Below, one piece after another: positions 22,439 through 55,479 of a DNA stretch of 64,000 nt. Position 1 is the first letter of the stretch. Each line of letters begins with the position of its first letter. This DNA comes from Armatimonadota bacterium. GTDB taxonomy: Bacteria; Armatimonadota; Armatimonadia; Armatimonadales; Capsulimonadaceae. Where the stretch lies: positions 13,615 to 77,614 of the forward strand of contig JANXMY010000042.1 in NCBI GenBank assembly GCA_025354405.1, read 5' to 3'. The position numbers and the translations under genes were made by a program. Below the pieces are notes generated by a model, which was not told the origin of the DNA, ran no database searches, and saw only the letters and a list, made by a program, of their open reading frames with translations.

Positions 22439-23656
22439 ATGCTCGGACTATCACAGGCCTTCGGCAAAGAAAAGATCGTTGGAGTCGATATCGGAAGCCG
22501 CCGAATCAAAGTCGTACAGGCCGAGGCTGGCCGCAGCCCCGGGTCGTGGCAGATCACAAAAGCAGCTGTCGGAGAGACGCCTGCCGATGCCGTCCGTGAC
22601 GGCATCGTAGTCGATCAGGCAGGGGTTGCCGCCGCTTTGCGTGCACTTCTGCTAGGTGCAGGGATTGAAGCCAATGCCGCTGTGGCAGCGATCAGCGGCT
22701 CGAGCGTCATCGTACGCCATGTTAAGCTGCCGCGAATGGCACAAAGCATCCTGCAAAAATCGGTGCGATTTGAGGCCGCCAAGCATATCTCTTCCTCTAT
22801 CGAAGAAAGCATGGTCGAGTTCGAGATCGCCGGACCAGTCCCTGGTGAAGAAGACAAGATGAGCGTCATGCTGGTTGCCGCTCCCAATGAGATGGTGGAT
22901 TCCAGGCTCGCAGCGCTTACCCTGGCCGGCCTGGAGCCGGTAGCGGTTGACGTAGAGGCGTTTGCCCTTCAGCGTGCCCTCGTCGATCTGTCCCCCACGA
23001 AACCCGGGGAGGGTATCACCCTGGCCCTGCTGGATATTGGGGCAACCACCACGGATGTCAATATTATCACCAACGGCATGTTTGCACTCACCCGGAACAT
23101 TCCAATCGCCGGGGACAGTTTCACACAGGCTTTGAAGTCCGTGCGCCCTGAAGCGGACTGGGCGACTCTGGAAGCCCTCAAAACCGAAGTGGATATGGCG
23201 TCACTGCTTCAGCCGGACGCCGACCCAAATACCACTGCCCTGGCACGCGCCATGCAGCCGGCACTCGATGAGCTGCTGCGCGAAGTCCGCCGTTCGACTA
23301 ACTATTACCAGTCGCAGCTTGCCGACGAAGCGAATTCGATTCTGCCGCCTGGGATCAATGCTCAGGCCGCGGGAGCTGTGTCCACCCTGGTGATCACCGG
23401 TGGGAGCGCGAAGATCAAAGGTCTTGAGACTTACATGGCAGCCCGGCTGGGTATCCCCGTGGAGACCTGGAACCCGTTTGAGAACCCGGCGTTCGATGCC
23501 TCACGCTTTGCCCCCAGTTTCGTGGAAGATAACCACGCTCTTCTGGTGACGGGAATTGGCCTGGCATTAAAAGAGCTGGTTCCAGTCCGCCCTGCCGATA
23601 AGTTGATGAAGCTGAATTCCGCGAAGACGATCAAGCCGCTTGCCAAAGCTGCCTGA
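22439..23656 (+). CDS. pilM: Type IV pilus assembly ATPase-fold protein PilM
   Basis: Actin-like N-terminus IVGVDIGSRRIKVV. It comes first in the pilMNOPQ order. Confidence 0.85.
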   Translation: MLGLSQAFGKEKIVGVDIGSRRIKVVQAEAGRSPGSWQITKAAVGETPADAVRDGIVVDQAGVAAALRALLLGAGIEANAAVAAISGSSVIVRHVKLPRMAQSILQKSVRFEAAKHISSSIEESMVEFEIAGPVPGEEDKMSVMLVAAPNEMVDSRLAALTLAGLEPVAVDVEAFALQRALVDLSPTKPGEGITLALLDIGATTTDVNIITNGMFALTRNIPIAGDSFTQALKSVRPEADWATLEALKTEVDMASLLQPDADPNTTALARAMQPALDELLREVRRSTNYYQSQLADEANSILPPGINAQAAGAVSTLVITGGSAKIKGLETYMAARLGIPVETWNPFENPAFDASRFAPSFVEDNHALLVTGIGLALKELVPVRPADKLMKLNSAKTIKPLAKAA

Positions 23657-23682
23657 GAAAACCGCGAAGGAGAATAGAACCA

Positions 23683-24318
23683 ATGCCTTCCATAAATATG
23701 ATTGCCGTGCGCCGTGCCGATAAACGGCGTCAAGAACAAAATATCCGCAAGCTGCTGTACGGCATCATCGGCGAGTCGGGGCTGATCGTCGTCGCCGCCT
23801 TCGTGGTCACAGCCCGTATCTTCGGGATGCAGGGCCATGTCAACGATCTATCGGACCAGCTGCAGAAGCTTAAGCCAAAAGTCACGGAAATCCAGGCTTT
23901 GCAGGCGCAAACCGTTGCCATGCAGCCGAAAGTCGCGACACTCGACGGAGCAAAAGCCGACACTCTGTTCTGGTACAGCAGCCTCGGCGCAGTCTCTGAC
24001 AGTCTGCCAGCGCAGACCTGGCTGACTTCGATGGGAACCAGTAATTCCTCCTCCGCTGGCGGTCCCGGAACCTATGCCGGCACGGACCCGACGCTCAATA
24101 TTACGGGTATTGCGATGAGCCAGGCCATGGTCGGCGAGACGATGCTGCGAATGAATTCTTCTCCGTCTCTGGACCATGTTGACTTATCATTCGTAACGCA
24201 GCAGAAGATCGGACTGGCGAATGCGGTGTCGTTCCAAATGACAGTCCACCTCAAGCCAGAATCCGATGCCGTCACTCCGGCCACTCTGAAAGGAGCTTCC
24301 AATGCTCAAAAGTCCTAA
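23683..24318 (+). CDS. pilN: PilN-like pilus assembly protein
   Basis: INMIAVRRADKRRQ N-terminus, a single TM, a coiled coil, and its position after pilM. Confidence 0.75.
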   Translation: MPSINMIAVRRADKRRQEQNIRKLLYGIIGESGLIVVAAFVVTARIFGMQGHVNDLSDQLQKLKPKVTEIQALQAQTVAMQPKVATLDGAKADTLFWYSSLGAVSDSLPAQTWLTSMGTSNSSSAGGPGTYAGTDPTLNITGIAMSQAMVGETMLRMNSSPSLDHVDLSFVTQQKIGLANAVSFQMTVHLKPESDAVTPATLKGASNAQKS

Positions 24319-25135
24319 TGGGGTGGTCTCACCCGCAAAAAAAATCATGCTGACTCTGGTGGGGGGTTCCGGCCTGGTACTGCTCGCTGGGGGTGCGGTT
24401 CTTTTCGGGCTGAACTCGAAGCTTACCTCTTTGCAGGCAACCGCTGTTCAGTCCGAAAAAGAAGTCGGCTCCAGCGAGCAGATCGCGAAGCGTTATCAGG
24501 CGACCAAAGACAGTTTCAATGAGACGCAGGGGCGGATCCAATTTTTGGAAAGCGCCGTCACGTCGAAATCTTATGTGCCGACGCTGCTGAAACAGCTGCA
24601 AACACTGGCGCTGACCACGCACTTGAACGTCACTTCGGTTCGCCCTGGTGCGCCGCCGCCGCCCGTCGCCCCGGCAGCTCATCCGTCGGACAGCGCGACT
24701 TCCGCCGCGGATGTCAAGAAAGTCGCACCGCCGCCTTATGATATCGTGCCGATCGATGTGGATATGACTGGCAGCTATGCAAATACGGCAACTTTTCTGT
24801 ATAGCCTGACGCGATTCCCAAAAATCATCGCGGTGGTGGGAGCCCAGCTTCACCCGAACGGCCTTCCGCCCGGCTCCAGCCCGACCGCTTCGCCAACCGT
24901 GACGACGAACCTGCATCTGGTTGCCTTTATGTTCCATGAAGATGCTTCCACGGCCCCTATCCTGCCGGGATCCCCGGCAGTCACCACCGCTTCCATGCCG
25001 ACGAACGGCCCGGTGGATGTCTCAAAAATCGATCCGGCTGCAGGACGCGTCGAACGCGGCGCACTCGCCGCTTCAAAGACTTCGAGCGACCGGATCGGAC
25101 AGAATCGAACGGCTGTCGGAAGCAGCTCACTGTAG
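24302..25135 (+). CDS. pilO: PilO-like pilus assembly protein with Pro/Ala-rich insert
   Basis: Single TM, coiled coil and ferredoxin-like core (VPIDVDMTGSYANTATFLYSLTRFPKII), plus gene order. Confidence 0.65.
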   Translation: MLKSPNGVVSPAKKIMLTLVGGSGLVLLAGGAVLFGLNSKLTSLQATAVQSEKEVGSSEQIAKRYQATKDSFNETQGRIQFLESAVTSKSYVPTLLKQLQTLALTTHLNVTSVRPGAPPPPVAPAAHPSDSATSAADVKKVAPPPYDIVPIDVDMTGSYANTATFLYSLTRFPKIIAVVGAQLHPNGLPPGSSPTASPTVTTNLHLVAFMFHEDASTAPILPGSPAVTTASMPTNGPVDVSKIDPAAGRVERGALAASKTSSDRIGQNRTAVGSSSL

Positions 25136-25148
25136 GCAGGAAGACACC

Positions 25149-26144
25149 ATGAAAAAATTAGACAAAAAGCAAATTCCTCAGTTCGTGGCACTCTGTGTTC
25201 TGTCATCCGGCGTGTTCGGCTACTTCGTCATACGGATGGTCACTCCCAGTGAGGCATCTGCCAGCACTGCCGTGCGCCAGTCCACGCCGGTGGCCGCTGG
25301 ACCGACGACGAAAGCAGTCACACCCGTGCCGACGACCGTGAACACGGCGGCGGGGGCTCCTCTGATTGTCGCATCGGCAGTCACTCCAACAGTTGCGGGC
25401 GATCCAGCGCCTGCTGTTCTTCAGCCTCTGGCGGGAATGCGTGACCCCTTCGTTGTCGGTTATGTCGAACCGAAGATCGCTCCACCGGTGGCACCGGTTA
25501 TCGCGCCGCCAAAGCTGATTGCTTCACCTAATCCACAGATGGCCCGTGCTACCCTCCCTGGCCTATCGGCGTTCCCAGCACCGCCCGCCCCGGACCTTCC
25601 CAACGGCCTGACCGGCTTCTCCGTGCGGCCAACACAAATGGCTCCTTCCCTGCCGCGAGTCTTGGCACCCCCAACTCCCGCGCCAGCCTGGACCGTGACG
25701 GGTGTGCTGCAAGCCAATGCGGAGAAGGTGGCCATCCTGCGAAATGGGGAAGCCCGGCGGATTGTTCGCAGCGGCGATTTCGTGGATAGTACGTATCAGG
25801 TCGCCGATGTAACCCGATCCTATGTCGTGCTGCGGCATGGATCCGCGACCTACCGGCTCATGCTGGGGGGGGGCAAACCGGCCCAGTCCCCAACCCTGGC
25901 CCCGGCATCCGTCAGCGGCCCGCCGATGCTTACAACCCCACCCGACTCCGCCGCGCCGAAGCAAACAGCTCCCGGCCAGCATTTAGGTCAGCCTGGCAGC
26001 TCCGCGCTGACGCAGGCGGGTCACTCTCTAGGCCGGCTTGCGACGCAGTGGCTTAGCAAAACGCGAACCGAGCCAGTCCAGGCTTCACTATCGCAGCCGA
26101 CAGATCAGATCGCCCTTCGGTTTTTTGATAACACACAAGAGTAG
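25149..26144 (+). CDS. PilP-like, Pro/Ala-rich periplasmic protein
   Basis: The ATG at 25149 (MKKLDKKQIP) is followed by a TM segment and long Pro-rich linkers. A small beta domain follows (WTVTGVLQANAEKVAILRNGEARRIVRSGDFV). It sits between pilO and pilQ. Confidence 0.55.
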   Translation: MKKLDKKQIPQFVALCVLSSGVFGYFVIRMVTPSEASASTAVRQSTPVAAGPTTKAVTPVPTTVNTAAGAPLIVASAVTPTVAGDPAPAVLQPLAGMRDPFVVGYVEPKIAPPVAPVIAPPKLIASPNPQMARATLPGLSAFPAPPAPDLPNGLTGFSVRPTQMAPSLPRVLAPPTPAPAWTVTGVLQANAEKVAILRNGEARRIVRSGDFVDSTYQVADVTRSYVVLRHGSATYRLMLGGGKPAQSPTLAPASVSGPPMLTTPPDSAAPKQTAPGQHLGQPGSSALTQAGHSLGRLATQWLSKTRTEPVQASLSQPTDQIALRFFDNTQE

Positions 26145-26160
26145 TGCCGCTAAGTAATAC

Positions 26161-26181
26161 CGGCTTTCCGCAGGAAAGCCG
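26161..26181 (+). promoter_or_regulatory. Intercistronic stem-loop just upstream of the pilQ SD
   Basis: CGGCTTTCC gca GGAAAGCCG, a perfect 9-bp stem, immediately followed by GAAGAGGAG. Confidence 0.3.
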
Positions 26182-26195
26182 AAGAGGAGATTTTC

Positions 26196-27836
26196 ATGCA
26201 GACCAAACCGTTCGCCTTCCCTAAAAATATCGCATTGAATGCCGCCGCACTCGCGCTGGCATCGGGGCTACTTGCAGCGTCAAGTGCAATTGCCGCTCCG
26301 GTCACAGCCGCGCCACATACGGTACGGGCGATGACCAGCAGCACCGACGATGTCACGCTGGATTTCGTTTCCGCCGATATCAATGATGTCCTCAAAGCCC
26401 TGGCGATGCAGACCCGGAGCAATATTGTCTCTGGCAGCGATGTCAAAGGCACGATCACCGTCTCTCTGGCGCATGTCTCGCTGGAGGAGGCACTGGACCT
26501 GATCACCAAGTTGTCCGGCTTTCAGTATGCCAAGATTGGCAAGACCTACCTCGTCGGCAGCCCCACCGCAATCCAAACCCTGACCGCAAACGGCTCGGCA
26601 CAGTCCCCGGCAGTCACCGGAGTGATCGCCTTCAGCTATTCCGACCCGGCTGACCTGACCCTCGAGCTGAAGCAGCTTTATCCGAACTTGAAGACGACTC
26701 CCGGCAAGTCCGCAGGCGGGCAGGCGGGCGGCGGCGTCCTGGTGGTCACAGGCTCTCCAGAAGATGTCGAGTCGGCCCGCCGCATGATCTCCGACTCTGA
26801 GGGAGTGCTCTCGAAGAATATCCAGGCCTCCCGAACCGAGGTCTACAACATCAAATACGTCTCCGCCGACGACCTCCAGCTCGTTCTGGCGCGTCTGGTG
26901 CCTGGTGTCATTATCACCCCAGGCCCGGTGCAGCGTACCTATGCTCCCGCACCGATAACAGCCGATGCAGGCGGCGTAACGGCGATGACCAGTTCCACTG
27001 GGTCGGGTGGCGGAACCGTCACTTCAGTTACCGGCAATCTTCCAGTAAAGCCCACAACTACCTCGCTGCTCTTGACAGGGTCCGACGCCGATCTCGCCCG
27101 TGCCCTCCAAGTGCTTGCGACTGTTGACCTGCGCCCGGCACAGATTAACTTCGAGGCTAAAATCACGGAGATCAACCTCAACAAAACGGACCATCTGGGA
27201 CTGACCTATGACTTCAGCGGGGCAGGTTCAACGGTGGGGGAAACCTTATCCCCTAATTATGCAGGGAAAATTCTGAAGTTGGGGACGTTTACCCGAACTC
27301 CTTTATCAACCTTTGTTCGAGTTCAGCTGAATGCGATGTATCAGAGCGGTGACGCCAAGCTACTCTCCAGCCCAAATATCTCGGCGCTGGATGGTCAGCC
27401 GGCGGCGGTCTTTATTGGTGACTCGATTACCTATGTTTCTTCTGTTACGACCGGTCCCACCGGCCAAAATATCACGACGGCGACTGTCAATGCGGGAATC
27501 AAGCTGCTGGTGACCGGTAAGATCAACAACGATGGCTACGTGACGATGAACATTCATCCGGAAGTCTCTACGCCGACTTTCAAACCGTCGATCGGCGGTG
27601 CAGTCCTCCCAGACATCTCGACTCGCGAGGCGACGACCACGGTGCGCGTCAAGGACGGAGATACCATCGCGATCGGCGGCCTCATCAGCCAGCAGGATGT
27701 CAAGAATATCACTAAAGTCCCTTTCCTCGGCGATCTGCCGTTCTTCGGACAGCTCTTCCGAGACTCGCAGACATCGCATAACCGCAACGAAATCGTGATC
27801 TTCGTGAAAGTCTCTGTGCAGAAAGACGCCGTTTAA
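26196..27836 (+). CDS. pilQ: Type IV pilus secretin PilQ
   Basis: Signal peptide, an N-domain (VTLDFVSADINDVLKALA) and a secretin C-domain ending in VPFLGDLPFFGQLFR. Confidence 0.9.
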   Translation: MQTKPFAFPKNIALNAAALALASGLLAASSAIAAPVTAAPHTVRAMTSSTDDVTLDFVSADINDVLKALAMQTRSNIVSGSDVKGTITVSLAHVSLEEALDLITKLSGFQYAKIGKTYLVGSPTAIQTLTANGSAQSPAVTGVIAFSYSDPADLTLELKQLYPNLKTTPGKSAGGQAGGGVLVVTGSPEDVESARRMISDSEGVLSKNIQASRTEVYNIKYVSADDLQLVLARLVPGVIITPGPVQRTYAPAPITADAGGVTAMTSSTGSGGGTVTSVTGNLPVKPTTTSLLLTGSDADLARALQVLATVDLRPAQINFEAKITEINLNKTDHLGLTYDFSGAGSTVGETLSPNYAGKILKLGTFTRTPLSTFVRVQLNAMYQSGDAKLLSSPNISALDGQPAAVFIGDSITYVSSVTTGPTGQNITTATVNAGIKLLVTGKINNDGYVTMNIHPEVSTPTFKPSIGGAVLPDISTREATTTVRVKDGDTIAIGGLISQQDVKNITKVPFLGDLPFFGQLFRDSQTSHNRNEIVIFVKVSVQKDAV

Positions 27837-27875
27837 GCTAGTCTCTACAGAACCGACGCAGCTTTACCGATAATT

Positions 27876-27909
27876 ATGGCAGGGAATAGTCCCTGCCATT
27901 TTCTTGTTT
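27876..27909 (+). terminator. Rho-independent terminator/attenuator between pilQ and pilB
   Basis: ATGGCAGGGA atag TCCCTGCCAT followed by TTTCTTGTTT. Confidence 0.65.
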
Positions 27910-27930
27910 CGGTATCCCCAAGGTAATTCT

Positions 27931-29661
27931 ATGCAGTCAACAGCAGCGGTAGATATTTTCGTCAGCAGCGGCCTTGTTTCCCAAGAGCAACTGACGCAGG
28001 CCCAGGAGAAGCAGCAGCAGTTGAAGACGCAGGAGCCGGTGGGTGACCTGCTGGTTTCCATGGGGTTGATCACCGAGCGCGACCGGGTCAAGTGCCTTGG
28101 CGAGCAATGGGGCGTCCCCTATGTAGACCTGACGGAAATACAGATTCCTGAGGAGGTCACGGCGGCAGTGACGCAGGAGCTGGCACGCCGGTTCAAAGTC
28201 ATCCCCATCGAGCGCACTCCAAAGCGTATTACCCTGGCGATGAAGAACCCGCTGGACATCTTCGCCATCGACGAAATCCGGCTCATTACGGGCAAAGAAG
28301 TCGATGCGGTGATCGCCACTGAAGAGGACATTATCCTCGCTATTTCCGCAAATTACCGCACGGAAGTCAATGTCACCGAAGCGGTTGCCGGAGTCATGCG
28401 GGACATCGATGAAGCGACGATCACCCTGACCGAAGGCAATGTCGGCGGGGATGAAAATATCTCCATCGAACAGCTGAAAGAGCTGTCGGGTGAAGCCCCG
28501 GTCGTCCGCCTGACGAATATGATCATCTCGCGCGGAATTGCCGATAAAGCTTCCGATATCCATATTGAACCGGGCAAAGACGGCCTGCGCATTCGTTACC
28601 GTGTCGATGGTATTCTTTCGGACGGCATGACCCTGCCTAAAAAAGCGCAGGCCTCGGTAACATCGCGCATCAAAATCATGGCGGACATGGATATCTCCGA
28701 GAAGCGTGCCCCGCAGGATGGTCGCATCTCAGCGACTATTGAAGGCCGCCCCTACGACTTTCGCGTTTCAACTCTTCCGGCAGTGTTCGGGGAGAAGATC
28801 GTGATGCGCGTCCTCGACAAAGCGAACATCTCGGTCGGCCTCCACAAGCTGGGCCTGCTGCCCTACACTTACGAGATGTTCGAGTCGATGATCCAGCGTA
28901 CCTACGGTATTATTCTAGTGACCGGACCGACGGGATCGGGTAAGTCTACAACCCTCTATTCGGTGCTGGCAAAACTGAACTCCGGCGAGAAAAATATTTT
29001 AACTATCGAAGACCCCGTGGAGTACGAGCTGTCGGGGATCACGCAGAGCATGGTAAATAACCGGGCGGGTATGACCTTTGCCGCCGGGCTGCGATCCATG
29101 CTGCGGCAGGATCCGAACATTATCATGGTTGGCGAGATGCGCGACCAGGAGACGGCCATGATCGCCATCGAGGCGGCTCTGACCGGGCATCTCGTGCTGT
29201 CGACACTGCACACCAACGATGCCCCCGGCTCGGTCGCACGACTGCTGGATATGGGGGTCGAGAGCTTCTTGATCGCGTCGTCCATCGCCGGAGTTCTGGC
29301 CCAGCGCCTGCTGCGGACAGTCTGCGTCAAGTGCAAAGAGCCGTATTCGCCGCCGAAAGATGCAATCAAGCGGATCGGCATGAATTTGGATATTCTGGAC
29401 AAAAGCGAGGTAACTTTCTACCGCGGCAGAGGCTGCGACCACTGCAAAGGCACCGGCTATAAGGGCCGCGTCGGAGTGTACGAGCTGATGCCGGTCAACG
29501 ATAAAGTCCGGGAGCTGATTCTCGCCCGCGGCTCGTCATACGCTATTCGAGAGGCGGCGATCGAGGCCGGGATGCGAACATTAAAAGACGATGCGATGGA
29601 GAAGATTTTGCTCGGCATCACAACGCTTGAAGAGTCTTTACGCGTGATCTACGCAGGGTAA
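27931..29661 (+). CDS. pilB: Type IV pilus assembly ATPase PilB (GspE family)
   Basis: N-terminal GSPII domain, Walker A GPTGSGKST and a tetracysteine motif (CVKC ... CDHC). The ATG at 27931 lies downstream of the terminator. Confidence 0.9.
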   Translation: MQSTAAVDIFVSSGLVSQEQLTQAQEKQQQLKTQEPVGDLLVSMGLITERDRVKCLGEQWGVPYVDLTEIQIPEEVTAAVTQELARRFKVIPIERTPKRITLAMKNPLDIFAIDEIRLITGKEVDAVIATEEDIILAISANYRTEVNVTEAVAGVMRDIDEATITLTEGNVGGDENISIEQLKELSGEAPVVRLTNMIISRGIADKASDIHIEPGKDGLRIRYRVDGILSDGMTLPKKAQASVTSRIKIMADMDISEKRAPQDGRISATIEGRPYDFRVSTLPAVFGEKIVMRVLDKANISVGLHKLGLLPYTYEMFESMIQRTYGIILVTGPTGSGKSTTLYSVLAKLNSGEKNILTIEDPVEYELSGITQSMVNNRAGMTFAAGLRSMLRQDPNIIMVGEMRDQETAMIAIEAALTGHLVLSTLHTNDAPGSVARLLDMGVESFLIASSIAGVLAQRLLRTVCVKCKEPYSPPKDAIKRIGMNLDILDKSEVTFYRGRGCDHCKGTGYKGRVGVYELMPVNDKVRELILARGSSYAIREAAIEAGMRTLKDDAMEKILLGITTLEESLRVIYAG

Positions 29662-29666
29662 TACAA

Positions 29667-30572
29667 ATGCACTTCCCCACGACCGAACCAACCATGCTGG
29701 ACAGCCTAGAGCAGATTCTTGCCGATTCCGGCGATCCCCTTCCCCTGCCGCAGGTGGTGTTTCGTATCGGCCAGCTGACGGCGAATCCGAAAGCGACCGC
29801 AGTCGATTTGGAAAGGCTGATCGGGATCGACCCGGCTCTAGCAGCACGAGTGCTGGCACTGGCGAACTCGAACTACTACAGCCTGGCGGGTCAGATCTCC
29901 AGTCTGCACGAAGCCGTGGTCTTTCTAGGCATCAAAACCCTGCGAGACATGGCGGTAGCGATCACAGGCTTCAACCAGTTTCTGGGACGCGGCGATGCGC
30001 CTGCCCTCGCACGGCGCTCCCTATGGCGCCACTCAGTAGATACGGCGCAGTGCGCACGGATCGTCATCGGCGCACTTCCTGCCACGGCTAGGGAGACGGT
30101 CGGAGTGGATCAGGCTTACACGGCAGGCCTTTTGCACGATATTGGAAAGCTGGCACTCGACCATTGCCGCCACGGACTTTTCGTCTCGCTGATGCAGATG
30201 GCTCGTGTCCAGAATGTCCGCTACTACGTCATCGAGGCAGAGGTGATGCCCATCGGACATGCCCAGATTGGGGCTTCGCAGGCGCAGCGATGGAACCTGC
30301 CGCCCACACTCTGCGAATCGATTGCCTATCATCACACGCCCCGGGCGGCGACGATTAGCCCAAAGCTGACGGCAGCGGTGGCGCTGGCGAACGAAATCGC
30401 ACACTTTCTGGAAGACACTCCTTCGGGAGATGCTCCCGTCACTCTGGAAGAACTACTGGCATCCTGCCGGGAATCAATGCTGCCGCTGCGCATTCGTCCG
30501 GAAGCCCTGGAGGGAATTGTCCTTACCTGTCGGTCGGAGATGGAGCAGGGCCTGAGTGCATTGGCTTTTTAG
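29667..30572 (+). CDS. HDOD domain signalling protein
   Basis: LPQVVFRIGQLTANPKATAVDLERLIGIDPALAARVLALANSNYY ... GLLHDIGKLAL. It starts 5 nt after pilB and ends 20 nt before pilT. Confidence 0.8.
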   Translation: MHFPTTEPTMLDSLEQILADSGDPLPLPQVVFRIGQLTANPKATAVDLERLIGIDPALAARVLALANSNYYSLAGQISSLHEAVVFLGIKTLRDMAVAITGFNQFLGRGDAPALARRSLWRHSVDTAQCARIVIGALPATARETVGVDQAYTAGLLHDIGKLALDHCRHGLFVSLMQMARVQNVRYYVIEAEVMPIGHAQIGASQAQRWNLPPTLCESIAYHHTPRAATISPKLTAAVALANEIAHFLEDTPSGDAPVTLEELLASCRESMLPLRIRPEALEGIVLTCRSEMEQGLSALAF

Positions 30573-30592
30573 CCGCATGAGGAAATATTTCA

Positions 30593-32146
30593 ATGATCAT
30601 GAATAATGAAGATCTGCTGCCGCTCACTGCGCACAAAAACGGACGCCCGGGAACAGCAAAAGTCGCCGCGCCTCCGGAAGACGAGATGGACAGCTTTTCC
30701 GCCCGGGTAGCGGACACCTTCGACAGCGTAGATCTTCTGCTGGCGGCGCGGGCGGAAGCAGAGGAGGCCGAGTCAAAAGCAAAGGCGATCGGGGAAACGG
30801 TGCTGCCATTTGTCAAAGAAGACCGAAAAGCCGCCGCGAGGTATTCCCAGCCCGAGGTGACTCCCGAAGGCATTCTACGTAACAAGTTCACGATCGGCGG
30901 CACTGCCGATGACGATGAGTCACCGGCGGCGATGAACATGGGTGGCAGCTCTCTGAGTGCCCTCAGCGATGCTTCCAGTGTACAGACGAAGCTCTCCACC
31001 AAAGACTTCATGAGCGGCGGCGAGGGTGACGACTTCGATTTGATGGCTTCTCGTACCGTTGCCGGCGGCGAGGAGCGCGAACTGGCGGATGTCCATATCG
31101 ATGAGCTGCTTCGGCTGACGGTGCAGTCAGGAGCATCCGACCTGCACCTTTCCGTCGGACGCGCCCCAATGGTGCGGAAGGACGGCAAACTGGTCCCTCT
31201 GCCCTTCGAGCTTGCGCAGGAGCGGGATACACAGCGCATCGTCTTCGATATTCTCAATAACTCGCAGATCGAGAAGTTTGAGCGCACCCATGAATTGGAC
31301 TTCTCCTACGGGGTCAAAGGCGTGGGAAGATTTCGCTTCAACGTCTACCGGCAGCGGTCGTCGGTCGGCTGCGCGATGCGTGTCATTCCGAACGTTGTCC
31401 CGAGCATGGAGCAGCTGAAGCTGCCAGCGGTCATGAGAAGCTTCACGCAGAAACATTCTGGCCTGGTACTCGTTACCGGCCCAACCGGCTCGGGGAAATC
31501 GACGACCATCGCTTCCTTGATCGACATCATCAACTCAGAGCGTGAAGCGCATATTCTGACCATCGAAGACCCGATTGAATACCTGCACAACCACAAGAAG
31601 AGCATGGTCAACCAGCGGGAGCTCGGCACAGATACGGACTCGTTTACGAATGCCCTGCGGGCATCGCTTCGCGAAGATCCGGATGTCATACTTGTCGGCG
31701 AAATGCGCGACTTGGAAACAATCTCCGCTGCGATCACACTCGCAGAGACAGGGCACTTGGTGTTCGCCACCCTGCACACCCGCTCGGCCCCGGCAACGAT
31801 CGACCGTATCGTAGATGTCTTCCCTGCGCATCAGCAGGAACAGATTCGAGTTCAGCTTTCCACCAGTATTGAAGCGGTGGTCTCCCAGCAGCTGCTGCCA
31901 AAGATCGGTGGTGGCCGCGTGGCGGCGATCGAGATCATGGTCGCGACCAGTGCGCTCCGAAATTTGATTCGCGAGGGAAAAAGCTACCAAATCTACTCAG
32001 TCATCGAGACCGGCCATCAGTACGGAATGCAGGCGATGGATCGAGTACTGGCCGACCTGCATCGCAGCGGCCAGGTGACATTTGAAGAAGCAGCAACACG
32101 GGCGGTTGACCGGGAAAACTTCCAGCGGCTGGTGAAAGGGTATTAA
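30593..32146 (+). CDS. pilT: PilT-family retraction ATPase with ~165-aa acidic N-terminal extension
   Basis: Walker A GPTGSGKST and the PilT signature ALRNLIREGK. The core starts near residue 168. The ATG at 30593 has a GAGGAA SD. Internal Met151 (31043) is an alternative start. Confidence 0.85.
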   Translation: MIMNNEDLLPLTAHKNGRPGTAKVAAPPEDEMDSFSARVADTFDSVDLLLAARAEAEEAESKAKAIGETVLPFVKEDRKAAARYSQPEVTPEGILRNKFTIGGTADDDESPAAMNMGGSSLSALSDASSVQTKLSTKDFMSGGEGDDFDLMASRTVAGGEERELADVHIDELLRLTVQSGASDLHLSVGRAPMVRKDGKLVPLPFELAQERDTQRIVFDILNNSQIEKFERTHELDFSYGVKGVGRFRFNVYRQRSSVGCAMRVIPNVVPSMEQLKLPAVMRSFTQKHSGLVLVTGPTGSGKSTTIASLIDIINSEREAHILTIEDPIEYLHNHKKSMVNQRELGTDTDSFTNALRASLREDPDVILVGEMRDLETISAAITLAETGHLVFATLHTRSAPATIDRIVDVFPAHQQEQIRVQLSTSIEAVVSQQLLPKIGGGRVAAIEIMVATSALRNLIREGKSYQIYSVIETGHQYGMQAMDRVLADLHRSGQVTFEEAATRAVDRENFQRLVKGY

Positions 32147-38000: not shown

Positions 38001-38237
38001 TTAGTGGACACCTTCCCATTCTAATTCTTCCCACTGCGGATCAAGCGTGCCGGTCGCCAGGTGATCGTAGACGCGGTTCAGGCGTACGACCGGCTGACGA
38101 CGCGCCCAGGCATAAAAGCGCGCAGCGGCGTCCCGCAGTGTGATGTTTTCCGGGGCATAGGGTGCGGAAACCTGGAGAAAGGTGCCGAGCATTTCGACCA
38201 GGCTCGTTTCTGTTTGTGCCATCGGGGACGGATTCAT
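38001..38237 (-). CDS. Small hypothetical protein (78 aa)
   Basis: An ORF only, divergent from the MraZ-STAS gene. No family is recognised. Confidence 0.35.
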   Translation of the reverse strand: MNPSPMAQTETSLVEMLGTFLQVSAPYAPENITLRDAAARFYAWARRQPVVRLNRVYDHLATGTLDPQWEELEWEGVH

Positions 38238-38392
38238 GGGTTACCTGCTCCTTGAGTTATTGAGATGTGCACTTTTACCCCTCCCACTGCCAGGGTCTAA
38301 CAAATAATCGTGCCGCCCTGTGCCACAAAGTGACATACTTGGTGCCGAAGTTGGGTATAGTATTCCCGCACGGAGTTTCCAGTGGGACATCT

Positions 38393-39157
38393 ATGTTTAG
38401 CGGAATTTACACCTATAATATTGACGGCAAGGGCCGCATCGTCATGCCAAGCCGCTTTTTGGAACGGCTCGGCAATCCTTTTGTGCTGGCTGGCTGCCCC
38501 GGTGGGAATCTAATCGCCGTGTCGCGGCCTGAGATGCTTCCCGGCGCGACGGCAGCCCACGGCTATGTCGAGTGCAGCATCCGGGACCGGACAGGCCGGT
38601 TCGTCATCCCCAGTGCGCTGCGCGAGTTTGCAGAGCTGCATCAGACTGGCGAGGCGACGGTAATCGGTAAAGGAGACGAAGTCGAGATTTGGAACAAACG
38701 CCGCTGGGAGTTCCAGGCTCAGGGCGAGCGGCCGTCTGGCATTCGTTCGGAAGTGTCCTCCGGGTACGCACCATTGCTGGACTTCTCCCCCACTCCCGTA
38801 ACATCCGCGATCATCCGGCAGAAAGCACTCTACGGGCAGCCGTTTTTTGAGGTCGAGGGCATGCTGACAGTCATCGATACCGAGCGAATTATCACGCGGC
38901 TGGAAACGGCCCTGCGCGGCAAGCCACGCACTGTTTTTCTCGATCTGCGCGGCGTGGAAACGATCGACGCGGCCTTCTTCATGGCGATGGAGCCGTTGAT
39001 CGCGCAGCTTGCAACCTATGCCGGGCGGATGGCGGTTCTGACTGAGCGGGTGGATGTGGCGACATTAGTCGAGCGACTCTGTGGATTGAAGTATGTACGT
39101 GTTTTTCGAAATTTGGAATCGGGGCTTTGGTGGCTGGTAGATGAGGGGCACGCGTAA
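38393..39157 (+). CDS. MraZ-like (double SpoVT/AbrB-type) DNA-binding domain fused to a C-terminal STAS (anti-sigma antagonist-like) domain
   Basis: N-terminus MFSGIYTYNIDGKGRIVMPSRF, a second repeat RDRTGRFVIPSALREF, then EVEIWNKRRW, all as in MraZ. The C-terminal ~100 aa (RTVFLDLRGVETIDAAFFMAMEPLIAQLATYAGRMAVL) look like STAS, but with Ala-Ala where the phosphorylatable Ser normally sits. Confidence 0.7.
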   Translation: MFSGIYTYNIDGKGRIVMPSRFLERLGNPFVLAGCPGGNLIAVSRPEMLPGATAAHGYVECSIRDRTGRFVIPSALREFAELHQTGEATVIGKGDEVEIWNKRRWEFQAQGERPSGIRSEVSSGYAPLLDFSPTPVTSAIIRQKALYGQPFFEVEGMLTVIDTERIITRLETALRGKPRTVFLDLRGVETIDAAFFMAMEPLIAQLATYAGRMAVLTERVDVATLVERLCGLKYVRVFRNLESGLWWLVDEGHA

Positions 39158-39212
39158 GTCGCAACGGATCCCAATCAGTCTATTTAGTAACTAGGAAGCA
39201 CAATTGCAAAGT

Positions 39213-39244
39213 GGCCCGGCGAATCATAATGGATTCGCCGGGCC
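39213..39244 (+). terminator. Strong stem-loop after the MraZ-STAS gene (terminator-like, weak U tract)
   Basis: GGCCCGGCGAATC ataatg GATTCGCCGGGCC, a perfect 13-bp stem followed by ATTTCG. Confidence 0.5.
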
Positions 39245-39420
39245 ATTTCGAGTAATGAAAACTCTCGCGCAGCAAGCTGCGGGGTATCTACAGGATTGTC
39301 GGCCTGAGAGCCGACCCTACAGAGTCTCGGCTCCTGAAAGAGCCGAGTATGCCAAAACCGGTAACGGTGCAAGCACCGGGGAATGACACCCGCAGAGATT
39401 CACTCCAAATATTTTCTCCC

Positions 39421-39448
39421 TAAAGCTCTTCGCCGAAACTGCCGATAA
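39421..39448 (+). promoter_or_regulatory. Sigma-28 (FliA/SigD)-type promoter candidate upstream of pilC
   Basis: TAAAG (39421), a 16-nt spacer after TAAA, then GCCGATAA (39441-39448). The consensus is TAAA-N15-GCCGATAA. It ends 38 nt before the pilC GTG. Confidence 0.45.
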
Positions 39449-39485
39449 TGAAGACGGCGCAGAAGAGTGCGCGGGAGGTATTCTT

Positions 39486-40697
39486 GTGGCGACATTTGTT
39501 TATGAAGCAGTAGATCCATCCGGCCGGATCGTAAAAAATAAAGTTGAGGCAGATAATGAGCAGGTCGTGCTGGCAAAGCTCCAGGATCAGCAGTTTCACG
39601 TGATCTCGCTGGGCGAAGCAAAAGCCGGTCTGAAAATGCAGCTTTCCGGCGGCAAAGCTCAAAAGATCAAGCTGCAGACACTCGTAGTCTTTTCGCGGCA
39701 GTTCGCGACGATGATCGATGCAGGTATCCCAATCATCAAGTGTTTGGACATTCTTGAGAGCCAGACCAAAGAAGATGCCATGAAAATGGTCATCAATTCG
39801 ACTCGGAAAGATGTCAAAGGCGGTCTCTCGCTTACGGATGCCATATCAAAGCATCCGAATGCATTCTCCAAGCTTTATGTCAATATGATCCGTGCGGCAG
39901 AAATTGGCGGTATTCTTGATGTGATTTTGGACCGGCTTGCAGGATTCCTCGAAAAGGAAATGGAAATAAAGGGCAAGATCAAATCGGCGATGATGTACCC
40001 GATGATTGTCCTAAATTTCGCGGGCATCATGGTGCTTGCCTTGTTCATGTTTGTTCTGCCGCGATTCAAAGAGATATTTCTCTCAATGAATGTCGAAATG
40101 CCGCCGGTAACGCTGGCACTCTTCGCCGTCGGGGATTGGCTGCAGCAGTATTGGTGGATCGCGCTAATTATTATTATTGGCTCGATTATTGCGTTTAAGC
40201 AATATGCCAAGACGCCTAAAGGCAACTACAATGTCGATAAGCTGAAGCTCAAAGTCCCGATCTTCGGCGATCTGGCCCTGAAACTCAGCATCTCGCGCTT
40301 TGCCCGAACCTTCGGCACACTTATCTCTTCAGGCGTCCCGATGATGCGCTCTCTGGAGATTATCGGAGAGACGTCCGGCAACGCAATTTTGGCGGAAGCG
40401 ATCGTCAATGCGCGTACCTCTATTCGGGAAGGGGCAAAGATCAGCCAGCCACTGGCAGCCTGCGGCCTATTCCCGGCGATGGTGACGCACATGGTAGATG
40501 TTGGGGAAGAAACGGGGCGTCTCTCCGAGATGCTTTGTAAAGTCGCTGACTTTTACGATGACGAGGTAGATGCTATGGTCAAAGGACTGACCTCCATGAT
40601 CGAGCCGCTCCTAATCGTTTTTATGGGAGTGCTCGTCGGCTTTATTGCCGTGTCCGTCATGTCTCCGATCTTCAAGCTGGTTAGCTCAATTCACTAA
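39486..40697 (+). CDS. pilC: Type IV pilus inner-membrane platform protein PilC (GspF family)
   Basis: Two T2SF repeats (FSRQFATMIDAGIPI and FARTFGTLISSGVPM) in 403 aa. The GTG start is 7 nt after GGGAGG. Confidence 0.9.
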   Translation: MATFVYEAVDPSGRIVKNKVEADNEQVVLAKLQDQQFHVISLGEAKAGLKMQLSGGKAQKIKLQTLVVFSRQFATMIDAGIPIIKCLDILESQTKEDAMKMVINSTRKDVKGGLSLTDAISKHPNAFSKLYVNMIRAAEIGGILDVILDRLAGFLEKEMEIKGKIKSAMMYPMIVLNFAGIMVLALFMFVLPRFKEIFLSMNVEMPPVTLALFAVGDWLQQYWWIALIIIIGSIIAFKQYAKTPKGNYNVDKLKLKVPIFGDLALKLSISRFARTFGTLISSGVPMMRSLEIIGETSGNAILAEAIVNARTSIREGAKISQPLAACGLFPAMVTHMVDVGEETGRLSEMLCKVADFYDDEVDAMVKGLTSMIEPLLIVFMGVLVGFIAVSVMSPIFKLVSSIH

Positions 40698-40751: not shown

Positions 40752-42077
40752 ATGGCAGAGACAACGAACGCCGTCGGGGCAACCGTCGGCTGGGATGGTA
40801 GCGATCGACGTGGGCCGGGGCGTTTGGACGATGAGGCCCGTGCGCGACGCCTGCTGACGGAATACAAAAGCGGCGGCCCCGGGGCCGCCGCCGCCCGCGA
40901 CGCGCTGGTCATCCAGTTCCGCCCGCTGGTGCAGAAGCAGGCGCGACATTTCTTCACGTCCTCGGTGCCTCTGGAAGACCTGGTTCAAGAAGGCTTTCTA
41001 GGGTTGATCCACGGGATCGACCAATATGACCCCACCCGCGGGGTGAAGCTGATTACCTACGCCACCCACCACATCGACGGCCATCTGCGGCACTTCCTGC
41101 GAGACCGCAGCCAGATCATCAAAGAGCCAGCATGGCTTCAAGAGATGGCTCAGAAAGTCCGCCGCGAGGCAGATTCCCTGACGCAGGAGTTAGGCAGAGA
41201 ACCGTCGGACAGCGAGGTCGCAACATCCCTTGGCCTGAACGAGTCGGAAGTAGCGCGGATCCGCTCCACGCGCGCCATCTTCTCAGTACAATCCCTCGAC
41301 GAAGCGCAGGAAAATGGGACGGCGCGGGTACAGATCGCCGAAAGTAACACGGAAGCCTCCCGCACAGAGCTTCCGATCGAAGATAAAGTGGTTCTTGAAG
41401 CGGCTTTGTTGCGGCTCAAAGAGATCGAGCAGAAAGTCCTGTACTCTTTCTATTATCAGGATCAGAGCCAGACCGACATTGCCCGCGCTTTGGGCGTCTC
41501 CAACAACTACGTTTCCCACATTCTCAAAAATTCCGCCCGGAAGCTGCAGCAGATGTTCCGCAGCGATGCCGTCCGTGAGGCCGCGCTGCAGTATGAGCGT
41601 CAGCGGCGGCGCCACGCCGCGCATGGCCCGGAAGTAGTCGCGCAGGAGGCGGCGGAGACGGCCCCTACCGTAATCGATTCTGTGACTGGCCTATTCACCC
41701 GAAAGTATTTCGACGATCGCCTGGATGAAGAGCTATCCCGTGCTAAGCGTCACCAACTGGAGTTGTCAATCATACGGGTCCAGGTTGGAGTGGAGCTGCT
41801 AGAAGCTGCACTGTTTGCCAAGATCGCCGACACCGTCAAAGACTGTATGCGCCGCTCCGATCTGGTCGCTCGCTTCGAGGAGCACGAGTTCATCACGCTG
41901 CTGCCTCATACGGGAGCCACGCGTGAAACGGTCGTAGGCCGCCTCCAAAGCCGCCTCTCAGAGCTGGTCGCCACATTCCCCCACCCCTGCACGGTCGCCG
42001 TGGGGCGTTCGTCCTATCCCGCTCAGCGTCAGCGTGCCGACCTGCTGTCGGCGGCACTGCCGCTTGAGGGTGGATAA
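40752..42077 (+). CDS. Group-3 sigma-70 family factor (SigB/F/FliA-like) fused to a C-terminal degenerate GGDEF domain
   Basis: Regions 2-4 span residues 50-270 (LVQEGFLGLIHGIDQYDP, TYATHHIDGHLRHFLRD, an HTH at QTDIARALGVSNNYVSHILKNSARKL). Residues ~307-441 align to GGDEF (DSVTGLFTRKYF ... RRSDLVARFEEHEFITLLP). GGDEF is replaced by EEHEF, the upstream metal/substrate motif is lost, and RxxD is retained. Confidence 0.75.
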   Translation: MAETTNAVGATVGWDGSDRRGPGRLDDEARARRLLTEYKSGGPGAAAARDALVIQFRPLVQKQARHFFTSSVPLEDLVQEGFLGLIHGIDQYDPTRGVKLITYATHHIDGHLRHFLRDRSQIIKEPAWLQEMAQKVRREADSLTQELGREPSDSEVATSLGLNESEVARIRSTRAIFSVQSLDEAQENGTARVQIAESNTEASRTELPIEDKVVLEAALLRLKEIEQKVLYSFYYQDQSQTDIARALGVSNNYVSHILKNSARKLQQMFRSDAVREAALQYERQRRRHAAHGPEVVAQEAAETAPTVIDSVTGLFTRKYFDDRLDEELSRAKRHQLELSIIRVQVGVELLEAALFAKIADTVKDCMRRSDLVARFEEHEFITLLPHTGATRETVVGRLQSRLSELVATFPHPCTVAVGRSSYPAQRQRADLLSAALPLEGG

Positions 42078-53669: not shown

Positions 53670-53874
53670 TAGAGTTGTACGCAGACGAAGGCTTAGCTGA
53701 TTGATCGGGTCCGAAGCAGACCGCACTCCCAAAGAGCGGTTTCCTGTAAGCCCGCCTCCACAGCCTCGATCGAAACGCGGGCAGTCGAATGCAGTACACC
53801 CAATTGGCAGGAAGCCAAAGTCATACACACTCGTCACACGGTTCAACCCGGTGACCTCAAGGAAGAAAAAAACA

Positions 53875-55359
53875 ATGTCCAGCCGAATCAACACCAACAC
53901 GACCGCAACCGAAGCCGCATATAACCTCGGTATCAACAGCGCCAATGTCGCGAAGAACATCGAGCGCCTTTCGTCAGGCCTTCGTATCAACTCCGCTGCT
54001 GACGACGCTTCAGGCCTGGTCATCTCGGAAAGCCTGCGTGCCCAGTCCGCCGGCCTGTCCCAGGCAACTTCCAACACCAACGATGCTATCAATGTCGTGA
54101 AAACGGCAGAAGGCGCTCTCAACGAAGTTCACGCACTGCTCATCAATATTCGTCAGCTCGTGGTACACGCCGCGAACGTCGGCGCAAACGATCCGACAGC
54201 ACTCAAAGCCAATCAGGACTCCATCGCCTCCGCCGTCGCCAGCATCAACCGCATCGCCGGAACGACCCAGTTTAACAATAAAAATCTGCTCGACGGCTCC
54301 GCCAGCTCTTCGTCCGCAGCCGTCACCGGCGGCACGGGCACTGCAGTCGCAGCCGCCGGAAACAACCTGAGCATCGTTTCCCAGGCCGCCGGCTACGGTG
54401 CATCTGCGATCACCAGCGGCAGCGTTACTTCCACTGCGGCGACCGCGGAGAAGCAGACAGTCACCTTCACAACCGCCGTGACAGCGGGTACATTCGGCGG
54501 CAACTTCTCCATCGAAGGCAAAGCAGTCACCCTGACCGGCTCCGCTAACACGGCGGCGCAGGTTGCGACCGCAATTCAGCAGCAGACGGGCCTGAACTAT
54601 ACTGTGTCCACGGCCGGTTCCACCGCCGTCTTCACCAGCCAGGCCACGGGAAAAGCTGCCTCGACTTCGGATTATTCGGGCCTGACTAACGCCGGCGGTG
54701 GCGCCTACGCCTCAACGGTAGTCACGACGACTGGTGCGAGCGGCTCACTGACAATCAACGGACAGACCAGTGACACGACCAGCGCGGATGGGAAAACGTT
54801 CAGCTTCACCACCGGTGGACTGAAAGGATTGTCCCTCTCGACCAGCTCGACCCTGGGCGGAACCATCGGGACATTCAGCGCGACCGCCGACAAGGCCGTC
54901 TCCGGCCAGGACCTCCAGTTCCAGATCGGTGCGAACGCCGGCCAAACGGTCAACGTCAGCATCGGCAGCGCGAAGGCCAGCAATTTGGGCAGCTACACGA
55001 ATGCCGCCAGCAAGAGTCTGAACCTGGGCGACCTGCTCAGCGGCGGTGCGCTGAACGTCGCCGACCCAACCGGCGCCGCACAGCAGGATGCACTGAAAAT
55101 CGTCGACCAGGCCATTGCGGACGTCTCAACAACCCGCGAAAAACTGGGCGCGCTTCAGAGCAATGTTCTGGAATCGAATGTCCGCAGCCTCGGAGTTGCG
55201 CAGCAGAATACGGATGCCTCCCAGAGCACCATCCGCGACACGAACCTCTCCTCGGAGATTGTCGACTTCACGAAGAACCAGATCCTGGTTCAGGCCGGTA
55301 CCAGCGCCCTGGCGCAGGCCAACCAGGCTCCCCAGGCCATCCTGAAACTGCTTCAGTAA
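53875..55359 (+). CDS. fliC: Flagellin
   Basis: MSSRINTNTTATEAAYNL ... LSSGLRINSAADDASGL at the N-terminus and SALAQANQAPQAILKLLQ at the C-terminus. The ATG at 53875 follows AAGGAAG. Confidence 0.93.
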   Translation: MSSRINTNTTATEAAYNLGINSANVAKNIERLSSGLRINSAADDASGLVISESLRAQSAGLSQATSNTNDAINVVKTAEGALNEVHALLINIRQLVVHAANVGANDPTALKANQDSIASAVASINRIAGTTQFNNKNLLDGSASSSSAAVTGGTGTAVAAAGNNLSIVSQAAGYGASAITSGSVTSTAATAEKQTVTFTTAVTAGTFGGNFSIEGKAVTLTGSANTAAQVATAIQQQTGLNYTVSTAGSTAVFTSQATGKAASTSDYSGLTNAGGGAYASTVVTTTGASGSLTINGQTSDTTSADGKTFSFTTGGLKGLSLSTSSTLGGTIGTFSATADKAVSGQDLQFQIGANAGQTVNVSIGSAKASNLGSYTNAASKSLNLGDLLSGGALNVADPTGAAQQDALKIVDQAIADVSTTREKLGALQSNVLESNVRSLGVAQQNTDASQSTIRDTNLSSEIVDFTKNQILVQAGTSALAQANQAPQAILKLLQ

Positions 55360-55381
55360 TCCGGGCCGCTTTCGACCCAAC

Positions 55382-55412
55382 GGGGGCTGCTTCGGCAGCC
55401 TCCGTTTTTTTT
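55382..55412 (+). terminator. Rho-independent terminator after fliC
   Basis: GGGGGCTGC ttcg GCAGCCTCC followed by a T8 run. Confidence 0.85.
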
Positions 55413-55479
55413 GCGTCTGTCCACTAAAGAAACTCCGCGCCGACGCCGATATTAGAACTATCGCAGGAGACCCACCGTT

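Follow-up and report, generated by a model that had tools for sequence, protein, structure and literature searches.

What is known of MraZ relates almost entirely to its place as first gene and regulator of the dcw (division and cell wall) cluster, where it works as a ring oligomer. In Mycoplasma genitalium MraZ, studied in 2026 by cryo-EM and mutagenesis, Lys13, Arg15 and Arg86 read the GTG box and are positioned by Asp11 and Asp82, and the published box is GTG(G/T) with 6-nt spacers (PMC12957436). Within the ring, the C-terminal alpha5 and alpha6 helices interdigitate with the alpha2-loop-alpha3 region of neighbouring subunits, and a mutant lacking the ring interface was monomeric, bound all tested probes more weakly and performed poorly on a four-box probe with long spacers (PMC12957436). 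A second relevant system is CapS, a repressor characterised in 2026, in which a STAS domain is joined to a winged helix-turn-helix (wHTH) domain and which is controlled by the kinase CapK; DNA binding depends on a dimer formed by the STAS domain, and this dimer comes apart when CapK phosphorylates a conserved serine (PMC13373217). Here we describe MraZ-STAS, a gene at 38393..39157 on the + strand of a 64,000-nt stretch of Armatimonadota DNA (contig JANXMY010000042.1, assembly GCA_025354405.1), hereafter the window. A first-pass annotation, made from the sequence alone, had proposed that in its 254-residue product (plus stop codon) a DNA-binding domain of the MraZ type is fused to a STAS domain that cannot be phosphorylated. 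Sequence and fold tests of both halves confirmed that this fusion is genuine.

The longest frame containing the gene opens at GTG 38267 and runs to 39157, and alignment places the true start at ATG 38393 (MFSGIYTYN...), the methionine at which all of the approximately 30 homologs begin. The fusion ORF (open reading frame) is intact across about 26 independent sequence clusters, and comparison with five relatives gave a ratio of nonsynonymous to synonymous substitution rates (dN/dS) of 0.05-0.18. An assembly or frameshift artefact was rejected because of these intact clusters, the purifying selection acting over the whole length of the protein, and a linker that varies in length without acquiring stop codons. 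Interruption of the frame in other assemblies, which the first-pass annotation had named as a threat to the fusion, was seen in a few split or truncated copies (P0027/L021, P0028 and P0041), all of which look like indel errors or fragments. In L021 (2250-3752), the gene is split within the linker into 3001-3462 and 3405-3752. Since the adjacent small divergent gene, described below, also carries a frameshift there, indels introduced during assembly are the probable cause.

The N-terminal half, residues 1-112 (38393..38728, + strand), is a compact MraZ DNA-binding domain, as supported by Pfam, Foldseek and profile alignment to MraZ structures in the PDB. The Pfam model PF02381, suggested earlier as a check, passed with 53.4 bits against a gathering cutoff of 23, covering two stretches of the window protein, and it matched 16 of the 16 aligned family members. 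Foldseek searches of this half against the PDB returned 9qlg, 1n0e, 9sz7 and 9r4j, with E-values from 3e-9 to 1e-5 and TM-scores (TMt) of 0.61-0.68. The best of these matches, at E 3e-9 and a TMt of about 0.66, were to MraZ from M. genitalium and from M. pneumoniae. AlphaFold2 modelled residues 1-110 with a predicted local distance difference test (pLDDT) of about 71-92. The motifs on which the original domain call had been based are all present, with DGKGRIVMPSRF at residues 11-22, DRTGRFVIPSALREF at 65-79 and EIWNKRRW at 98-105.

The likeness to canonical MraZ proteins (M. genitalium, M. pneumoniae, E. coli) extends to the residues that contact DNA. Two tandem AbrB/SpoVT-like half-repeats of the same fold are shared, as are the IW.K..W helix and a DxxxR motif in each repeat. 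In MraZ-STAS these motifs read D11-G-K13-G-R15 and D65-R-T-G-R69 and are invariant, or nearly so, among homologs. The D11, K13, R15, D82 and R86 of the M. genitalium protein correspond to D11, K13, R15, D65 and R69, so that the two residues of the first repeat and the arginine of the second that read the box are kept. The likeness does not extend to the oligomer interface. In the profile alignment to solved MraZ structures, the alpha2-loop-alpha3 region is short by 13 + 4 (about 17) residues, including the positions of Glu49, Phe52, Arg70 and Phe73, and the alignment stops before alpha6 (Val133, Arg136, Met137), whose place is taken by a disordered linker and the STAS domain. The best NCBIfam MraZ equivalog match, TIGR00242, scored 44.8 bits against a cutoff of 98.35, with the other equivalog models lower still. 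Because these scores lie far below every NCBIfam equivalog cutoff, MraZ-STAS belongs to the MraZ domain family without being orthologous to the dcw regulator. The genomic setting also differs from that of canonical mraZ. A scan of all 47 other large ORFs that were selected from the whole window detected no dcw genes (rsmH, fts, mur), and none was found near MraZ-STAS in any fetched homolog locus. The early observation that no rsmH or fts genes follow it, and that it lies away from any dcw cluster, was thus borne out.

A disordered linker (residues 113-135, 38729..38797, + strand; pLDDT below 50) joins this domain to the C-terminal half; in homologs it can be as short as about 10 or as long as about 90 residues. 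Residues 136-254 (38798..39154, + strand) were identified as a STAS domain by AlphaFold2, Foldseek and profile alignment. With the family alignment as input, AlphaFold2 returned two confident domains, 1-112 and 136-254, with block-mean pLDDT values mostly of 82-93; the predicted template modelling score (pTM) of 0.58 means that this monomer model carries no information on how the domains are placed relative to each other. The order of secondary-structure elements fits the beta-beta-alpha-beta-alpha-beta-alpha-beta-alpha pattern of STAS domains, with pLDDT 82-93 over residues 140-250. Foldseek matched the C-terminal half to SpoIIAA (TMt 0.79-0.82), to RsbS, RsbV and RsfB (0.73-0.80), and also to SLC26 STAS domains. 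The sequence searches were less decisive. The Pfam STAS model PF01740, which the first-pass annotation had also put forward, scored 20.4 bits in the window protein, slightly under its cutoff of 22.6, with STAS_2, SpoIIAA-like and DUF4325 of the same Pfam clan trailing behind; among the relatives, 15 of 16 matched STAS at E <= 0.01, the lowest E-value being 5.8e-8. Against the PDB, the single sequence gave no significant match and the profile a weak one (E 0.07-0.4), which was used just for residue registration.

In that registration, the family motif LDLRxVxTxD-A-[AS]-F aligns with the SpoIIAA segment LNLxxLxFMD-S58-S-G. Ala193 stands opposite the phosphorylatable Ser58 of SpoIIAA and is nearly invariant in the family as part of the motif DA[AS]F, confirming that the serine is replaced, as had been read from the sequence at the outset. 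The C-terminal tail of the domain, LWWLV[DE]EGHA, is also nearly invariant.

MraZ-STAS shares features with several described systems. With SpoIIAA, RsbV and RsbS it shares the STAS fold (TM 0.73-0.82) and the alignable beta3-alpha2 segment, but these are single-domain anti-sigma-factor antagonists, whereas here the domain is fused to a DNA-binding module. The DSSG of the antagonists is replaced by DA[AS]F, with neither the phospho-acceptor nor the glycine, and no cognate kinase or phosphatase is encoded nearby. In SpoVT and AbrB, an AbrB-type beta-barrel DNA-binding domain is followed by a C-terminal multimerisation or sensing domain (GAF or oligomerisation), a layout similar to that of MraZ-STAS; the barrel of those proteins is a homodimer of single half-domains, whereas MraZ-STAS, like MraZ, carries both halves on one chain, and its C-terminal domain is STAS rather than the GAF of SpoVT. 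CapS is the closest precedent in function; in both proteins, a SpoIIAA-type STAS domain is covalently joined to a DNA-binding domain. The domain order is reversed, with the STAS domain N-terminal and the wHTH C-terminal in CapS and the MraZ domain N-terminal in MraZ-STAS, and the absolutely conserved phospho-serine of CapS is Ala193 here. CapS lies next to CapK and upstream of an immune operon, whereas MraZ-STAS has no GHKL kinase neighbour, is not associated with defence operons and gave no PADLOC hit. With CapS described, the tethering of a STAS domain to a DNA-binding module can no longer be regarded as unprecedented (PMC13373217).

The combination of MraZ and STAS is nevertheless a rare architecture, undescribed so far, with CapS as its published conceptual precedent. 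About 30 homologs share the MraZ-linker-STAS build, all from Armatimonadota metagenome-assembled genomes (MAGs) or metagenomes. In a scan of one genome per GTDB species, MraZ-STAS was found only in five Armatimonadota/Armatimonadales MAGs. A profile search of 1.84 billion 50%-identity representatives gave, among the best 150 matches, approximately 10 clusters (236-290 aa) that match beyond the MraZ part, the remaining full-length proteins in this set being ordinary MraZ proteins of about 145 aa. Divergent members of the family are 25-36% identical, keep the inter-repeat helices and carry a more degenerate STAS-like domain. Database names cover one half each ('MraZ protein' at JGI and 'STAS domain-containing protein' at NCBI), and a full-text literature search returned no paper describing the architecture, both of which are consistent with the initial remark that this domain combination was not recognised as described.

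Upstream of the gene, we identified a predicted operator of five direct boxes at 38310..38356 (+ strand), assigned by its conservation, its unique pattern and its likeness to the MraZ box. The boxes are GTGCC at 38310, GTGCC at 38320, GTGAC at 38330, GTGCC at 38342 and TGGGT at 38352, with steps of 10-10-12-10 bp, so that the layout reads GTGCC-N5-GTGCC-N5-GTGAC-N7-GTGCC-N5-TGGGT; across loci it lies within an intergenic region of 155-260 bp. The pattern GTG-N7-GTG-N7-GTG-N9-GTG occurs once in the window against 0.00 expected from shuffles. Looser patterns did not stand out in this way, with one match against 0.6 expected for three boxes and 4 against 2.5 for a degenerate GTGCC. Among 15 fetched loci, the four-GTG pattern is present exactly once per locus, on the coding strand, 49-186 bp before the start codon, and was not matched elsewhere in the fetched DNA of these loci. 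The array aligns gap-free over 10 loci, in which the GTG triplets, box 5 and an adjoining TAnAnT are fixed and only the spacers change freely, despite a synonymous divergence (dS) of 0.9-3.0 between loci. It has the motif core, orientation and period of an MraZ operator. The GTG-type boxes, the period of approximately 10 bp, the coding-strand orientation and the location upstream of the own gene are all shared with canonical MraZ (PMC12957436). The first-pass annotation had proposed looking for MraZ repeats on both sides of the gene; the array was found in the upstream region 38238-38392 (at 38310-38361 with the adjoining hexamer), and no further array was detected in the window, including the downstream region 39158-39485.

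The hexamer in question, TATAGT at 38356..38361 (+ strand; TAnAnT in most loci), overlaps box 5, resembles a -10 element and is followed by a conserved CCC block reminiscent of a discriminator. Its assignment as a -10 element is putative and is based on conservation alone. Several smaller features were observed around the array. An extra direct box, GTGGG, lies at 38382-38386, and a box of this kind is found 5-25 bp before the start codon also in L006 and L011 (GTGGA in the latter); in other loci (L002, L008, L016 and L017) the box just upstream of the start is inverted and reads TGGCAC or CGGCAC, which corresponds to GTGCCA or GTGCCG on the opposite strand. These start-proximal boxes may add another binding site, located in the 5' untranslated region. 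On the other side of the array, the block TTTACCCCnCCC at 38275-38290 shows partial conservation between loci. Its minus-strand reading, GGGGTAAAAGT, resembles the GGGTAnAnT element of the plus-strand promoter and may serve the divergent small gene as its -10 region. The flanking intergenic regions gave no Rfam match at E <= 1.

This small gene, at 38001..38237 on the - strand, encodes an acidic (pI 4.9), predicted helical protein of 78 aa and co-occurs with MraZ-STAS of the core clade. Every core-clade locus has it next to MraZ-STAS in divergent orientation, and its homologs are confined to contigs matching those of MraZ-STAS. The copies are 75-81 aa long and 47-60% identical, with 30 invariant residues and a dN/dS of 0.01-0.29. 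AlphaFold2 predicted 3-4 helices with a pLDDT of just 69, and no match was found in Pfam, NCBIfam, PADLOC or the fold search, where the best Foldseek E-value was 2.8. Next to an intact fusion gene in L009 (3580-3858) and L014, the small gene departs from its homologs beyond roughly residue 44, through a frameshift or decay. Both this gene and the GTG array at 38310-38361, the two conserved features of the neighbourhood, were missed by the first-pass annotation. The divergent gene, the GTG(C/A)C boxes, the 12-bp step and the fifth, TGGGT box all distinguish the locus from that of canonical MraZ, and the direct-repeat array differs from the palindromic operator of CapS.

Taken together, these features make it fairly probable, in our view, that MraZ-STAS is a stand-alone MraZ-type autoregulator that controls a divergent gene pair from the five-box array, with the STAS domain providing oligomerisation or signal input without phosphorylation. 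In this mechanism, the N-terminal double AbrB-like 'cradle' would bind the five direct GTGNN/TGGGT boxes, spaced roughly one helical turn apart, in the promoter region that is shared with the divergent 78-aa gene. Since box 5 overlaps the -10-like element, occupancy would most likely repress the promoter of MraZ-STAS itself, and the divergent gene would probably be under the same control. The loss of about 17 alpha2-alpha3 residues and the replacement of alpha6 by the linker and STAS domain lead us to propose that the STAS domain supplies the protein-protein contacts, either by self-association or through a partner, that would make binding to the array cooperative. Through this domain, a signal would also modulate DNA binding. 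Because the phospho-position is alanine and no kinase is encoded nearby, any such switch must be independent of phosphorylation. By this proposal, MraZ-STAS would resemble CapS, which is an autoregulatory repressor that binds its promoter cooperatively (PMC13373217).

Several observations weigh against this model. The boxes are mostly GTG(C/A)C and not GTG(G/T), and a 12-bp step separates boxes 3 and 4 in every locus, whereas canonical operators have a uniform 10-bp repeat; in principle, a regulator other than MraZ-STAS could bind there. No canonical or otherwise convincing -35 element precedes the hexamer, and a consensus scan of 38238-38392 called no sigma-70 promoter. The AlphaFold2 monomer model (pTM 0.58) is silent on self-association. 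Finally, in the distant members P0029, P0040 and P0043-47 the alpha2-alpha3 helices are still present and the STAS domain is degenerate, and their loci contain neither the box array nor the 78-aa gene. With helices kept and the STAS domain degenerate in these members, the loss of the helices and the gain of the STAS domain do not form a simple one-step story. The genomic contexts of the distant-member loci L015, L018 and L020 likewise contain neither a 78-aa homolog nor a box array, which indicates that the module is specific to the core clade.

A more ambitious version of the autoregulator model assigns a direct role to the 78-aa protein. MraZ-STAS, the acidic small protein and the five-box operator would then constitute an unrecognised, phosphorylation-independent partner-switching transcription switch. 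The small protein would bind the beta3-alpha2 face of the STAS domain or the LWWLVDEGHA tail and thereby alter the assembly of subunits on the array, and control of its gene by the same operator would close a feedback loop. We put this version forward only tentatively.

Comparably doubtful is a one-component system in which the STAS domain would bind a small molecule and switch the MraZ domain allosterically, leaving the 78-aa gene as a plain target. Some STAS domains bind a nucleotide, an anion or a lipid, and the order of DNA-binding domain, linker and sensor is typical of one-component regulators, with SpoVT (an AbrB-like DNA-binding domain plus a GAF domain) as a precedent. The strong conservation of the STAS core, including the beta3-alpha2 loop LDLRxVxTxDA, would suit a ligand site, and no partner protein of known type is encoded nearby. 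However, no ligand-binding motif was identified in the STAS domain, and its best fold matches are protein-binding anti-sigma antagonists and not the STAS domains of transporters.

It is improbable that MraZ-STAS is a displaced dcw regulator, which would mean that these Armatimonadota lack a canonical mraZ and that the fusion, besides its own promoter, controls that of the dcw cluster in trans. Canonical MraZ has the same DNA-reading residues and GTG box type, which would allow such a role, but the equivalog scores given above (44.8 against 98.35 bits) and the lack of a dcw gene near any of the loci argue against it. The nearest canonical MraZ proteins by profile score belong to Firmicutes and are uninformative on this point.

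The least probable explanation, and a very unlikely one, is the partner switching envisaged by the first-pass annotation, in which the STAS domain would antagonise a GHKL anti-sigma kinase or the neighbouring sigma-GGDEF protein and couple sigma or pilus control to DNA binding: the STAS fold is indeed nearest SpoIIAA, RsfB, RsbS and RsbV, and pilC and a SigB/F/G-family sigma gene do lie just downstream in the window, but the phospho-acceptor position is alanine, no HATPase_c/GHKL kinase or PP2C gene was found in the scanned window ORFs or the gene tables of the homolog loci, no box array precedes pilC or the sigma gene, and their adjacency is not conserved.

Beyond its own locus, the MraZ-STAS family presents the same DNA reader as MraZ outside the dcw setting, with a conserved array of its own and a ring interface that is partly deleted. 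If the STAS domain does control assembly on the array, this would be the second independent case, after CapS, of repressor oligomerisation governed by a STAS domain, and the first without phosphorylation. The system is simple, consisting of one protein, an operator of about 50 bp and one small partner, and is suited to asking how box spacing and subunit contacts set the cooperativity of MraZ and what non-phosphorylatable STAS domains sense. Its practical scope is limited, as the family is small and comprises only uncultured Armatimonadota and related metagenomic sequences.

The downstream genes were compared across the homolog loci. In the window, pilC (39486-40697) and a gene for a SigB/F/G-type sigma factor fused to GGDEF (40752-42077, + strand) follow MraZ-STAS, as had been stated. 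This neighbourhood is confined to relatives that are 93-97% identical (L006 and L013), in which 1.7-2.2 kb of other, mostly toxin-antitoxin-like genes separate MraZ-STAS from pilC; the remaining, more distant loci with downstream sequence carry unrelated genes there. The functional tie that the adjacency had implied was not borne out, and a link to pilC and sigma-GGDEF was rejected on account of the unconserved synteny and the boxless region.

The sequences between MraZ-STAS and pilC differ markedly among these close relatives. L006 4763-6511 and L013 175-2349 are insertions that match the position of 39158-39485 in the window. The intervening cassettes encode a PIN-like 147-aa protein with a 93-aa partner and a MazF/PemK-like 105-aa protein with a ribbon-helix-helix (RHH)-like 124-aa partner, and L013 has in addition a periplasmic-binding-protein gene. 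With just 328 bp between the two genes in the window, this region is a variable insertion hotspot. It also contains a hairpin with a 17-bp perfect stem at 39211..39246 (+ strand), about 55 bp past the MraZ-STAS stop codon. The segment 39150-39490 folds into several hairpins, with an RNA-fold z-score of -4.57 and 0 of 100 shuffles folding as well, and contains no clear U-tract and no Rfam match. The hairpin at 39211-39246, which separates MraZ-STAS from pilC, may serve as a transcript end or stabiliser.

The sigma-GGDEF protein contains sigma regions 2, 3 and 4 and a C-terminal GGDEF domain with EEHEF instead of GG[DE]EF. An RxxD motif (RRSD) is located five residues upstream of EEHEF. From these motifs, the attached GGDEF domain looks catalytically dead and may still bind cyclic di-GMP (c-di-GMP).

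The local genes of the window include a type IV pilus cluster at 22-32 kb and genes for a VWA protein, an FAD oxidoreductase, PilC, sigma-GGDEF, PadR, NDH-2, ArgRS, flagellin and FliD. The type IV pilus genes are split into a block at 22439-32146 and pilC alone, 7 kb away. The block comprises pilM, pilN, two unassigned ORFs, the pilQ secretin, pilB, an HDOD protein and a pilT-like ATPase, and between it and pilC lie the genes for the VWA protein and the FAD oxidoreductase and the MraZ-STAS pair. Flagellin and fliD are located at 53701-57855. In one subclade (L002, L014, L016 and L017), serpin and radical-SAM CofH-like genes recur a few kb downstream of the fusion, which is probably plain synteny among relatives.

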